NCBI GenBank assembly: GCA_964016885.1
Contig: OZ024752.1
Coordinates: 1,736,001 to 1,800,000, forward strand
Source of the DNA: Eledone cirrhosa
Lineage: Eukaryota
Reading direction: 5' to 3'
Length of the DNA: 64,000 nucleotides
In this document: positions 4,089 to 62,517 of the stretch, one piece after another
How the letters are laid out: each line of letters opens with the position of its first letter
Numbering within the stretch: position 1 is the stretch's first letter
Translations under genes and position numbers: made by a program
Notes under the pieces: generated by a model
Told to the model about the DNA's origin: nothing
What the model saw: the letters and a program-made list of their open reading frames with translations, nothing else
Database searches by the model: none

Positions 4089-4261
4089 TATAATCCTGTA
4101 ATTAAATGAGCTCAAAGGAAAGAGTTTTCCTGGGTACTTTAAAATACAATATATAGAGGGGAAAGTAAAGTAAATCACACACTTCTGTGTATTTCCCCTC
4201 TATATATTGTATTTTAAAGTGCCCAGGAAAACTCTTTCCTTTGAGCTCATTTAATTACAGG

Positions 4262-4669: not shown

Positions 4670-4858
4670 AATTGTTTCTACTTTTGGCACAAGGCCAGCA
4701 ATCATCCAGTGTATTACTGGTACTTTATTTTATCGACCCCATAAGGATGAAAGGCAAAGTTAACCTCGGCGTGATTTGAACTCAGAATGGGAAGGGCCGT
4801 AACTCCATGTGTCAAAGCATGGCGTCCGACCCTCTACCGATACTGCCAATCTTCCGCC
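4670..4858 (-). mobile_element. tRNA-derived SINE, family 1 (GCCTTTCATCC...TCGATAAAATA central domain)
   Basis: Reverse complement of the family seen at 4875 and 29716: A-box-like TGGCAGTATCGG, B box GAGTTCAAAT, central GCCTTTCATCCTT, 3' GGCCTTGTGCC...AGTAGAAACAAT. Confidence 0.85.
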
Positions 4859-4874
4859 CTTATATATATATAAT

Positions 4875-5064
4875 GGCGATGGATTAGCAGTATCGGTAGC
4901 GGGTCGGACGCCATGCTTTGCAGCAAAGACTTACGGCTCTTTATGATCTGAGTTCAAATCCTGCCGAGGTTAACTTTGCCTTTCATCCTTACGGGGTAGA
5001 TAAAATAAATTACTAGTAATGTACTGGGTAATTGCTGGCCTTGTGCTTCAAGTAGAAACAATTA
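4875..5064 (+). mobile_element. tRNA-derived SINE, family 1
   Basis: B box GAGTTCAAATCC, GCCTTTCATCCTTACGGGG, 3' end AGTAGAAACAATTA; collinear with 29716-29903. Confidence 0.85.
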
Positions 5065-6919: not shown

Positions 6920-7521
6920 AATGAATTTAATCCAAATCGAAATTGTGGGTGTCATGCCATAACGGCGTGCGCCATATCGCCCGGAAATAAGCTCAAAGAT
7001 AGGTCCGAGCACTTTATAATAACTAGCAATTGATTAACAATACAAACATGAATAATCACAGGAGATAATTTTTACAAGCGTGTAACCACGCATAGCTAGT
7101 TGGGTAACAAATAAATAGATACCTTTTAATATGATTAATCTTCCCCGTATATAGTCCATTAAAGAAATATATTTCACCAATTAATCAGATGGTAAGTCAC
7201 GGAAAGTGGATATTATTGGATTATCAACAATAAGAATAATGTACAGCAATCCATGCTTAGACAGCGAGTTCAAATCCTCAACTGGCCGCTACCACGTGTT
7301 GCACTTACACATGACAGCAGTCTCGTCTCAGTGGCGTGAATAGGTATTCGACAACTAGAAACAGCAGTCTATTCCCTTCAACAGAATTAGCTCTACAATT
7401 AAGGAGCCGTATTTATATATCTATATCCAATTTCGATTTGGATTAAATTCATTTATTTATCTTAATTTTGGATATAGATATATAAATACGGCTCCTTAAT
7501 TGTAGAGCTAATTCTGTTGAA
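6920..7521. repeat. Interlocked inverted repeats (26-bp and 54-bp perfect arms)
   Basis: 6920-6945 = revcomp of 7428-7453; 7377-7430 = revcomp of 7468-7521. Confidence 0.85.
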
Positions 7522-24806: not shown

Positions 24807-25152
<346 letters not shown>

Positions 25153-25232: not shown

Positions 25233-25399
25233 GTATATATATTTATACATATATGTATATATTAGAAAGTGAGTTTTTTTTACAAATTGAAAAATAACCG
25301 AGGAGTCCTAGACGAGTGAAAGTATAAAGAAAAAGAGATGAAATCGAAAATGCAACTGGAGTCTTATTTAAAAAAAAAATATATATATTTATTTGGTTC

Positions 25400-25435
25400 C
25401 TTTACCGGTTTCGCAGTTCTTCTGCTTTTCAAAAG
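25400..25435 (-). ncRNA. Minimal type I HHR, U3-A8 variant (inverted copy)
   Basis: Exact reverse complement of 25484-25519. Confidence 0.65.
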
Positions 25436-25483
25436 TAGAGTTGAGATGGAGGGTCTGTGGTTTTTCCCTCCATTTCAACTCTA

Positions 25484-25519
25484 CTTTTGAAAAGCAGAAG
25501 AACTGCGAAACCGGTAAAG
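25484..25519 (+). ncRNA. Minimal type I HHR, U3-A8 variant
   Basis: CTT-TTGAAAA-GCAG(AAGAA)CTGC-GAAA-CCGG-TA-AAG: palindromic helix III ACCGGT, GUA triplet. Confidence 0.65.
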
Positions 25520-25611
25520 GAACCAAATATATATATATATATTTAAAAAAAAAATAAGACTCCAGTTGCATTTTCGATTTCATCTCTTTTTCTGTATATA
25601 TATACATATAT

Positions 25612-25685
<74 letters not shown>

Positions 25686-25687
<2 letters not shown>

Positions 25688-26061
25688 AGTAAGAATATTT
25701 TCGAAATAGCGAGTGGGTTTGAAATTATTAGAAATGTAACCTATCGCCGTAATTTGTAAAAGAAATTGAAGAAATTATTTAGCCTGATAGTTAAGAACCC
25801 TCGGAGAAATGGAAAAAGATGAATATTGACGTACATGGGAGTCGAACCAACATCTTTGTTTATCCGGACCACTATGCAACCATTTACGGGTGATGTATTG
25901 GTGTAAATGGTAGCACAGTGGTCCGGATAACCAAAGATGTGGGTTCGACTCTCATGTACGTCAATATTCATCATTTTCCATTTCTCCGAGGGTTCTTAAC
26001 CCCACTAAAAGGCTAAATAATTTCTTTAATTTCTTTAGTCCAAATACGGCGATAGGTTACA

Positions 26062-26070
<9 letters not shown>
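25686..26070. mobile_element. Fold-back hairpin + tail element with a tRNA-derived head
   Basis: Arms 25726-25887 / 25903-26070 (imperfect), tail 25686-25725, embedded in (TA)n. Confidence 0.85.
25892..25963 (+). pseudogene. tRNA-like cloverleaf (SINE head, not a functional tRNA)
   Basis: GATGTAT-TG-GTGT(AAATGGTA)GCAC-A-GTGGT(CCGGATA)ACCAA-AGAT-GTGGG(TTCGACT)CTCAT-GTACGTC-A. A and B boxes present; C at position 33 and several G-U pairs argue against a functional tRNA. Confidence 0.75.
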
Positions 26071-26125
<55 letters not shown>

Positions 26126-26354: not shown

Positions 26355-26364
<10 letters not shown>

Positions 26365-26676
26365 AGACCAAAAGATGGTTAAAAGAGTTCCATGTATTTT
26401 ATTATGCGCATTTCAAAAACAAATATCATCATGCAATAATATGTGTTTTTATCAGATAAAATAGGAAGACATGATATGAAGGTTAAAAAACACTTGTGGA
26501 TAGTGCAGTTTTAAATCAACATATTTGTTTTTGAAATGCGCATAATAAAATACATGGAACTCTTTTAACCATCTTTCGGTCTTATATATTATGTATACTC
26601 CAGTCCTACAAACTGTAGAGTGCTTCTTATGCGATATCTGCATTGCTTTATTGTACTACAATAAAACTCACCTCCT

Positions 26677-33815: not shown

Positions 33816-34540
33816 CTATATATAGGGCTTAAAGTTTTGGAAGGAATGTCTGAGGCGGTGCTGGCAAGTTGCAAACACCTCAGATTTTTTGTTAAGTAGG
33901 TTACGGTTGGAGAAGATAATATTGTGTGTCTCTAGAATACAGAGGTTACAGAATTTATTAGGTGGTTTGTACGAGGTCGCGCTGCCTATCACTTCCCATT
34001 TGAGTGTGTATGGTTTATTTTTAGATTTTAGATAGTGTATGTAGCTAGAAAGTGAGGTGGAGTTGGCTAGGCTGTGCTTTTTGAACGAGTGGATGTGCGA
34101 GTTATATCTGATTTTGAAGCAGTTAGAAGTGGAGCCTACATAGGTTTCTGAAGAGTTATTAGTCGTGACTGTGCATGAGTATATGACATCCTTGGTTAGG
34201 CATTTTTTATCTAAAGGGCAGGTTCTATTAGCTCTACAGTTACAATTATTCTGTGCGTTAGTCCGCTGGTTATAATGCAATGCGGAAGTCTGTGTGGTGG
34301 ATATAGGATTTTGGGTGTTCGGGTTGGCAACCCTGGTGTTATTACTTATACTAGTGTTATTTCTATTGTTACTGCCGTTGCTATTGTTGCTTGCTACAGT
34401 GGTATTTAGAGGGTTTGCATCCTGTTGTGATTTTGTTTGTTGGAAGTAAGAACTAATTTTACTATTATTGCTGCTAGCTATGTGGTATGCTAAGTTAGGC
34501 GTCGTAGAGTATGAGATTTTAATGGTGTTTTTGTTTAAGA
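33816..34540 (-). pseudogene. PLE ORF C-terminal fragment: linker, Cys-rich motif, GIY-YIG endonuclease (RT lost)
   Basis: NTIKISYS..PN...CNCR...CPLDKKC...VIY...YVGST...FK.RY..H..SF...STSLS.YI..LK...W...CNLC..E...LLNKKSE...CQH; frame uninterrupted. The N-terminal MHGQ..LLFS repeats in the ORF track come from the inverted pLTR. Confidence 0.9.
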
Positions 34541-34606
34541 GGCTGAAAAGGAGGCTGAAAAGGAGGCTGAAAAGGAGGTCATATAACTGTCCATGCATTA
34601 ATAAAT

Positions 34607-34653
34607 TGCTCCGAAGAATCCAAACCTCGGTTTGGAGGAAACAGCTGTAAGCA
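34607..34653 (+). ncRNA. Type I HHR in the inverted pLTR (U4C core variant)
   Basis: TGCT-CCGAAGA-ATCCAAAC(CTCG)GTTTGGAG-GAAA-CAGCTG-TA-AGCA: helix I TGCT/AGCA, palindromic helix III ACAGCTGT. Confidence 0.75.
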
Positions 34654-34711
34654 CAATAATGTTTTGAACAGTTCTTTGATTCTTATATTTCATATATTTC
34701 ATATATTTCAT

Positions 34712-62390: not shown

Positions 62391-62517
62391 ACGAGTGTGA
62401 CTTTTTAGTCCAGTCGCTGGCTGGACTAAAAAGTCACACTCGTCAGCGCATCGGTAGGCGTTCTCCTACATGGATTTAAGGTAGTGGCCGTATTCGAAAA
62501 CGAGTTGGCAGCCACCA
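62391..62517. repeat. Small fold-back hairpin (23-bp perfect arms) plus tail
   Basis: ACGAGTGTGACTTTTTAGTCCAG (62391-62413) / CTGGACTAAAAAGTCACACTCGT (62421-62443); unique sequence continues to (TA)n at 62518. Confidence 0.75.

Follow-up and report, generated by a model that had tools for sequence, protein, structure and literature searches.

We describe here a non-coding unit of 272 nt, devoid of any ORF. It is probably a non-autonomous retroelement that an endonuclease-bearing Penelope-type element (PLE) copies in trans, and it likely relies for its transcription on a tRNA-type Pol III promoter of its own. One copy lies at positions 25686-26070 of the window, a stretch of 64,000 nt from Eledone cirrhosa (contig OZ024752.1). 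The unit, its tandem runs, its two 3' end sites, the rule by which these ends are paired, its targets, the clusters of its 5' ends and one hybrid insertion with a PLE were all observed directly.

The window copy consists of two inverted arms set between two (TA)n target tracts recognised from their sequence, at 25596-25685 and 26071-26118 (no strand assigned). A reading made from the sequence alone had proposed that this was a tRNA-headed, SINE-like RNA duplicated in inverted orientation by PLE machinery, and much of its description held. The tRNA-like cloverleaf lies at 25892-25963 on the forward strand, where it scores 40.2 bits with the Rfam model RF00005 against a gathering score of 29; ARAGORN places a tRNA-like sequence at 25891-25964. 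The label tRNA-Ser(GGA) given by ARAGORN is not meaningful, and the sequence is not a decoding tRNA: its anticodon loop differs among subfamilies. On the same strand, sequence motifs resembling an A box (25899-25910), kept in subfamilies A to E, and a B box (25943-25951) are found. The left arm (25686-25887, reverse strand) is the reverse complement of the right one with 89% identity and, as had been noticed, it lacks the first 11 bases of the tRNA and carries a 40-nt extension at 25686-25725. Neither a poly(A) nor a visible TSD accompanies this copy, both outer ends of which adjoin (TA)n.

On the other hand, the proposed layout of a tRNA followed by about 105 nt and a tail proved wrong, the element being a circularly permuted unit of 272 nt. 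The numbering of this unit, u1 to u272, is taken from L028:1501-1772 and places the tRNA-like sequence at u7-78. The window copy lacks u228-272 (about 45 nt), a stretch that tandem copies possess. Its left arm is long-ended and runs from u18, where it is 5'-truncated inside the D arm of the tRNA, to about u227, with its 3' end towards the left (TA)n tract. The right arm (25886-26070, forward strand) is short-ended and runs from u1 or u3 to u185, with its 3' end towards the right tract. Both outer ends of the copy are 3' ends, and the two arms overlap each other by 2 nt (25886-25887). The 40-nt extension of the left arm, on the reverse strand, corresponds to a PLE-type tail comprised between the short and long 3' end sites, that is, the end clusters u183-190 and u217-231. 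This copy is older than average, with 11 of 200 positions off the subfamily majority against a mean of 2.7%, and two non-majority variants are common to both of its arms.

Other short fold-back elements are found in or near (TA)n in the window, at 25028-25149, 25329-25592, 26364-26583, 4095-4261, 7377-7521, 44447-44514 and 62393-62441, and throughout the genome several of them are again found next to copies of the studied family. A different and common tRNA-headed SINE forms a head-to-head pair at 4675-5058. In three loci (L148:900-1200, L012 and L185), SINEs of this kind also abut arms of the studied family in 5'-to-5' orientation with no spacer, which could reflect either a common machinery or a later insertion. 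Finally, L009:1890-1950 contains a same-direction chimera: another tRNA-SINE contributes the 5' half of its head, and the studied element takes over at the T arm.

The window element is not a chance arrangement, since a 24-mer from the body of the unit has 1,457 exact matches in the 3.0-Gb genome whereas its reversed control has none. A 24-mer from the head gave 1,537 exact matches and one specific to subfamily B gave 666, again with none for the reversed controls. In genomic copies, the sequence extends beyond the long end and re-enters the tRNA every 272 nt, and head-to-tail runs of the unit also occur, including a 10-unit array on contig C4 that shows signs of local duplication. Five subfamilies, A to E, have this layout in common. 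The unit measures 272 nt in subfamily A, and spacings of 246, 256 and 258 nt are observed in the others. Subfamily A is about 2-3% diverged from its own majority, while E, the oldest, has copies that are 81-86% identical to the E query; the lead to the latter came from two sequencing runs of one study, and the search made with it returned 1,358 candidates. In E copies (L303-L325), the part of the unit lying between the long end and the junction includes a (TA)n stretch of its own. In one of them (L314, G000:C12:34715110-34715499), the short-end segment is present as a tandem of about nine repeats of 43 nt, as if copying had restarted several times. The copies score between 40 and 51 bits with the Rfam tRNA model. 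The strand counts of the head 24-mer in G000 present a forward excess (863 against 674), which may come from a large array of a further subfamily; the counts for subfamily B are balanced. A large master array, as these counts suggested, was not found with A, C and D, searches for which gave at most 10 units among the scored candidates, these array counts resting on best-match lists.

The way in which these copies are inserted carries most of the argument. We analyzed the 83 distinct insertions behind the first 100 of the 1,457 body matches, taken by position on one chromosome, a sample in which the u163-186 search pattern forces one arm to reach u186. Fifty-three of them are inverted, 52 of these with their 3' ends outward, 28 are solo and 2 are tandem. 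Among the 134 outer 3' ends, 45 fall at u183-190, 65 at u217-231 and 24 elsewhere; the two main sites, about 38 nt apart, thus gather 110 ends, and (TA)n adjoins 122. The two ends of an insertion are not drawn independently: in the 52 pairs scored, we counted 31 long with short, 15 long with other, 3 other with other, 2 short with other, a single long with long and no short with short. Like ends are hence paired only once in 52, and none of 100,000 shuffles gave so few (shuffle mean 16.1). The same two end clusters were recovered in 58 loci obtained with other queries (60 minus 2 duplicates), 45 of which are inverted. Of 47 arm ends in subfamily E, 21 are short and 14 are long, 8 fall between the two sites and 4 run on. 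All subfamilies retain a stem, with one compensatory pair, whose loop contains the short end; the long end is situated immediately 3' of this stem. Arm lengths are variable and reach 826 nt, some arms exceeding one unit. The two arms of one insertion tend to derive from the same source, since opposite arms have 22% of their variants in common (69 pairs) against 4.4% in 3,454 random pairs. No TSD was found in 137 subfamily-A loci, only 3 of which had both flanks free of (TA)n.

These features are those of endonuclease-bearing PLEs, which are described as leaving an inverted 5'-truncated copy, a tail of 30-40 nt at one end and insertions in microsatellite targets (PMC8557442, PMC3846280). From what is reported of the anole PLE protein, it cuts and extends both strands, and two internal start sites on the RNA delimit the tail (PMC11167929); a competing model, antisense self-priming, has also been put forward for the same head-to-head layout (PMC3846280). 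The claim of the sequence-only reading that PLE machinery mobilises the element is therefore well supported, by the inverted arms, the 3' ends about 38 nt apart, the long-with-short pairing, the (TA)n targets and one hybrid with a PLE, and we have little doubt that it is correct.

This hybrid (L164/L271) displays in order (TA)79, an 81-nt long-ended arm of the studied element, a 5'-truncated PLE, the short end of this PLE and (TA)46. The arm meets the PLE without spacer and without microhomology, no ORF sequence is found to the left of the arm, and the insertion obeys the long-with-short rule. The PLE part contains an open frame of 507 codons with a reverse transcriptase motif, a Cys linker and a GIY-YIG domain, followed by a pLTR in which a hammerhead-like core is present; the only Pfam match is a weak one, to RVT_1 (E 0.0014). 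It belongs to a young family, with 97.5-99.3% identity in the main alignments to 17 other copies, and by eye at least 9 of these 17 loci show long and short ends of their own. From its linker, as defined in the consulted part of PMC8557442, we would tentatively call this family Neptune- or Nematis-type. Its tail is longer than that of the studied element (45-60 nt against about 38 nt). In two loci (L289 and L290), its frame, measured from stop to stop, reaches as many as 1,216 codons and includes a long stretch rich in Asn, which resembles the N-rich inserts described for Adineta PLEs. The hybrid suggests that the element and this PLE use a shared enzyme complex, but it could be a later PLE insertion beside an older arm. 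From reading the non-TA 5' joints, it is the only clear hybrid among the 83 insertions; a possible second one, L146, appears to pair two short ends. The Neptune-type family of the hybrid is a plausible, if tentative, candidate for the driver of the element.

The sequence-only reading had also raised the possibility that the 3' part of the element matches an autonomous PLE, and here we found no such match. DNA similarity to the unit was absent from an 832-aa PLE family present in the window (24 loci), from the family of the hybrid (17 loci) and from 723 kb of flanks containing pieces of many PLE families; only a short motif, in a different register, is common by eye to the tail of the unit and the tails of two PLEs. 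The window itself contains, at 33819-34682 on the reverse strand, the GIY-YIG end of this very young 832-aa family, for which 150 of 150 scored genomic matches are 100% identical over 146 aa; many of its copies have an open 832-codon frame, and its two ends lie about 150 nt apart. The GIY-YIG end and pLTR of a Neptune-type family related to that of the hybrid, with a similar short-end sequence, are found at 49750-50780 on the forward strand.

We then have to consider how the template is made. The idea that it is a Pol III RNA received mixed evidence. In its favour, 5' ends cluster just upstream of the tRNA: 10 of 134 arms end at u1-9 and 13 continue into the upstream unit, the former number exceeding what the neighbouring stop rate predicts (Poisson p 8e-7). 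Their mode lies at u3, a G that follows a pyrimidine and precedes the tRNA by 4 nt; this position corresponds to 25888 on the forward strand of the window and would be the RNA's 5' end, likely a Pol III start; by eye, 6 arms of subfamilies B to D end at u2-4. Against it, the sense strand has a single stretch of at least four T, a T5 at u88-92 situated 10 nt past the tRNA. Because this T5 precedes both start sites of reverse transcription, a plain Pol III transcript would tend to terminate before reaching them. Moreover, A58 of the B box is kept in 135 of 140 copies of subfamilies A to D but is replaced by T in 22 of 25 copies of E. On balance, we consider it rather likely that the Pol III promoter is in use.

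An alternative would be that the element is indeed mobilised by a PLE but that its tRNA is a mere passenger or folding module, the templates coming from Pol II read-through and the promoter being unused or giving only a dead-end RNA of about 88 nt. The presence of the T5 directly behind the tRNA in all subfamilies would agree with this, as would the 1,358 candidates returned for E despite its lost A58, the existence of a 10-unit array and the statement, in the portion of PMC7761336 consulted, that metazoan retrozymes lack promoters. However, read-through leaves the sharp 5' ends at u3 in A and u2-4 in B to D unexplained, and RNA structure does not explain the u3 ends either, because the 3' strand of the stem has already been copied by then. 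The A and B boxes are also kept in A to D while the anticodon loop drifts. We thus regard such a passenger tRNA as unlikely.

Most arms stop before reaching the start of the tRNA. The 5' ends of 61 of 134 arms lie at u61-80, and the joints of arms stopping in this 3' half of the tRNA use overlapping 4-nt palindromes; 17 further arms fall in the bin u41-50, mostly through alignment overruns through the T arm. The modification m1A58 was considered as a cause of this truncation hot spot and rejected, A58 being mismatched in 3 of 136 cases without any excess. Another position attracted our attention: in 22 of 122 passes, the G at u28 is replaced by T, A or C or is missing, against a median of 4.3% altered for 37 non-CpG G positions and 5.9% and 7.1% at the two remaining AGC sites. 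Within a single insertion, its state disagrees in 12 of 13 informative loci; in subfamilies B to D, the effect is weak (5 of 65). This fits an error site of reverse transcription on an RNA template. The base corresponds to tRNA position 22, however, which is not known to be modified.

Arms longer than one unit raise the question of a template whose ends are joined. A T-rich strand at u80-95 (25965-25980, forward strand) is predicted to pair with the last and first bases of the unit, a pairing that would set the 3' and 5' ends of the RNA side by side. The same strand, which holds T5 in the family and T4 in the window copy, is also a potential Pol III terminator. Formal covariation is nil, with a RNAalifold covariation term of 0.2 kcal/mol and 1 compensatory pair out of 55 in A to D, and single-sequence folding gave z = -0.8. 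The end-joining stem of E is longer by 2 nt on both strands (modal lengths 23 against 21 and 9 against 7), a double change that suits a circular or terminally redundant RNA template; duplexes combining an E with a non-E strand are for the most part less strong than matched ones, and, in all three groups compared, pairing is better in the sense than in the antisense strand. Among 39 long arms, in a set that favours long arms, includes the query and counts one array once, only 1 of the 30 arms reaching the second u3 stops at this position, while 10 of 23 do so at the first one (Fisher p 0.0005), a difference that is only suggestive. Error-prone joining of the ends was rejected: the junction has the same length in 86 of 90 passes, and three control stretches behave likewise.

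Three templates can be envisaged for the tandems. An RNA circle closed on the stem between end and start is slightly preferred among them. A terminally redundant transcript with strand transfer, as could be drawn by analogy from the account of Cassandra in PMC10886601, comes only a little behind it, and read-through of long genomic arrays is on an equal footing with the latter. We found no ribozyme that could process such RNAs: in the window, only the tRNA passes the Rfam gathering score, and a junction-spanning copy gave at E<=10 the tRNA and two chance matches. No hammerhead core followed by a fitting second core exists on either strand of the unit; the layouts of Twister, HDV and pistol did not fit it by eye.

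Coming back to the mobilising machinery, an ordinary SINE dependent on a LINE, with an R4/Dong-like or RTE-like partner targeting TA or TAA repeats and inversions due to twin priming or later fold-back, is very improbable and can be considered as largely refuted. The tRNA head, the 28 of 83 insertions that look solo and a TSD of 13-14 bp read by eye at one subfamily-B copy (L206) could be taken as its marks, and Dong-R4 and RTE are reported to be active in Octopus vulgaris in what was available of PMC13282606. However, several of these solo copies carry a tiny inverted arm, and PLEs make TSDs too, according to the part of PMC3846280 at hand. Solo copies with a LINE tail are not the majority: 55 of 83 insertions are inverted or tandem, which speaks against a single linear copy form, and neither a LINE-like 3' tail nor a poly(A) or simple-repeat tail is found, the copies ending at two internal sites past which the tandems continue. 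Twin priming by LINEs gives non-overlapping parts and would not duplicate the 3' region, unlike what we observe, where the same 3' region lies on both arms. The pairing of long with short ends and the tandem permuted units argue in the same direction, and the 723 kb of flanks contain no similarity to LINE pieces. Finally, a fold-back DNA transposon (MITE) or a DNA-level satellite with a captured tRNA, to which the inverted arms, the TA at both ends and the locally duplicated 10-unit array could point, has hardly any chance of being correct and is refuted because we found neither fixed terminal inverted repeats nor a fixed length, the arms being unequal, variable and asymmetric at their ends with inner joints that vary, while both the 5' stops and the error site at u28 agree with reverse transcription.

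Altogether, we propose the following scheme for a PLE-copied element with its own promoter. An RNA in the tRNA sense would have its start at u3, which precedes the tRNA by 4 nt. The PLE protein involved, likely of Neptune type as in the hybrid, would nick both strands of a (TA)n tract, and reverse transcription would start at two internal sites, in the loop of the stem at about u187 and just 3' of this stem at about u224. Such a start at two sites matches the behaviour in vitro of the anole PLE, as far as it is given in PMC11167929. Synthesis of the two cDNAs would mostly end within the tRNA's 3' half or at u3; they would be joined 5'-to-5', in many cases at short palindromes, and arms longer than one unit would need an end-joined template. 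A more specific version, in which a tRNA-like RNA made by Pol III and modified like a tRNA would close without ribozyme into a circle on the splint stem and be copied in successive rounds by a Neptune-type enzyme sharing no sequence with it, appears to us questionable; if true, it would provide a natural 272-nt substrate showing how PLEs regenerate tandems.

One would also wonder what such an element would teach us. Elements of the SINE type are classified as dependent on LINEs, and it is only recently that Pol III passengers of LTR elements received a name. A passenger of Penelope enzymes with a tRNA promoter, if true, would represent a third SINE-like route after the LINE- and LTR-dependent ones, and annotation pipelines would misfile it as a SINE, a MITE or a tRNA gene. 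Because the unit is short and provides thousands of arms, its end statistics are informative on PLE transposition: they bear on whether both nicked strands prime cDNA, on the need for a ribozyme, none having been found here, and on how the tandem structure is regenerated. The 272-nt unit is also a ready substrate for in vitro work.

The sequence-only reading had presented a partnership between a SINE and a PLE as something not well described. This stands insofar as a literature search, mostly restricted to non-subscription sources, revealed no tRNA-bearing, ribozyme-free PLE passenger; Repbase, Dfam or the supplements of the retrozyme preprint may list the family. The consulted portions of the O. 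vulgaris repeat annotation (PMC13282606) and of a review (PMC9659126) describe no such passenger. However, the partnership is not as unprecedented as suggested: in the accounts at hand, PLE mobilisation has been proposed for non-LTR retrozymes, and SM-alpha is a SINE-like Pol III tandem element with a hammerhead. What is new here is the hybrid with a candidate partner, the change of stem length on two strands, the u28 error site and the damaged B box in the oldest subfamily.

A parallel can first be drawn with metazoan non-LTR retrozymes, which, as far as the accessible parts of their descriptions go (PMC7229834, PMC7761336, bioRxiv 10.64898/2026.07.22.740005), are also short non-coding units found as monomers, dimers and arrays, with PLE mobilisation and a circular RNA template proposed for them too. 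These are defined by a type I hammerhead and are said to lack promoters, and the Xenopus families resemble pLTRs; the studied element has no hammerhead, resembles no pLTR that we found, and for want of a hammerhead fails to qualify as one of them. It also fails to qualify as a LINE-dependent SINE. The nearest Pol III tandem element is SM-alpha of Schistosoma, which like Sj-alpha is a SINE-like tandem unit apparently transcribed by Pol III into multimers (PMC6765202, PMC8490949). In contrast to the studied element, in which no ribozyme was found, both carry an active hammerhead that cuts monomers, and the descriptions consulted name no mobilising partner and no PLE-type inverted insertions. The TRIMp3 elements Cassandra, Helenus and Ajax, according to the available text of PMC10886601, likewise combine in a repeated unit a Pol III promoter derived from a small RNA with a retrotransposon system other than a LINE; Cassandra RNA is terminally redundant, and these elements need no LTR homology to their partner. 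They nevertheless depend on LTR retrotransposons, with a PBS, a PPT and a fixed TSD, and possess neither inverted arms nor a tail.

There is also a likeness with the PLE world itself. Endonuclease-bearing PLEs (Penelope/Poseidon, Neptune, Nematis and Naiad), in the parts of PMC8557442, PMC3846280 and PMC11167929 at hand, have in common with our element partial tandems, an inverted 5'-truncated arm, a tail of 30-40 nt at one end, AT-rich or (TA)n targets and two start sites near a stem-loop; Naiad elements, like it, are without canonical hammerheads. The studied element differs from them by having no ORF and no pLTR similarity that we could find, and by its internal tRNA-like sequence. Chlamys elements such as MRC1, as presented in PMC8557442, are non-autonomous PLE passengers with multicopy head-to-tail insertions as well; they share 3' sequence with autonomous families and no tRNA is reported for them there, unlike the element studied here. 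In its mode of insertion, the 272-nt unit thus works like a non-autonomous PLE passenger.
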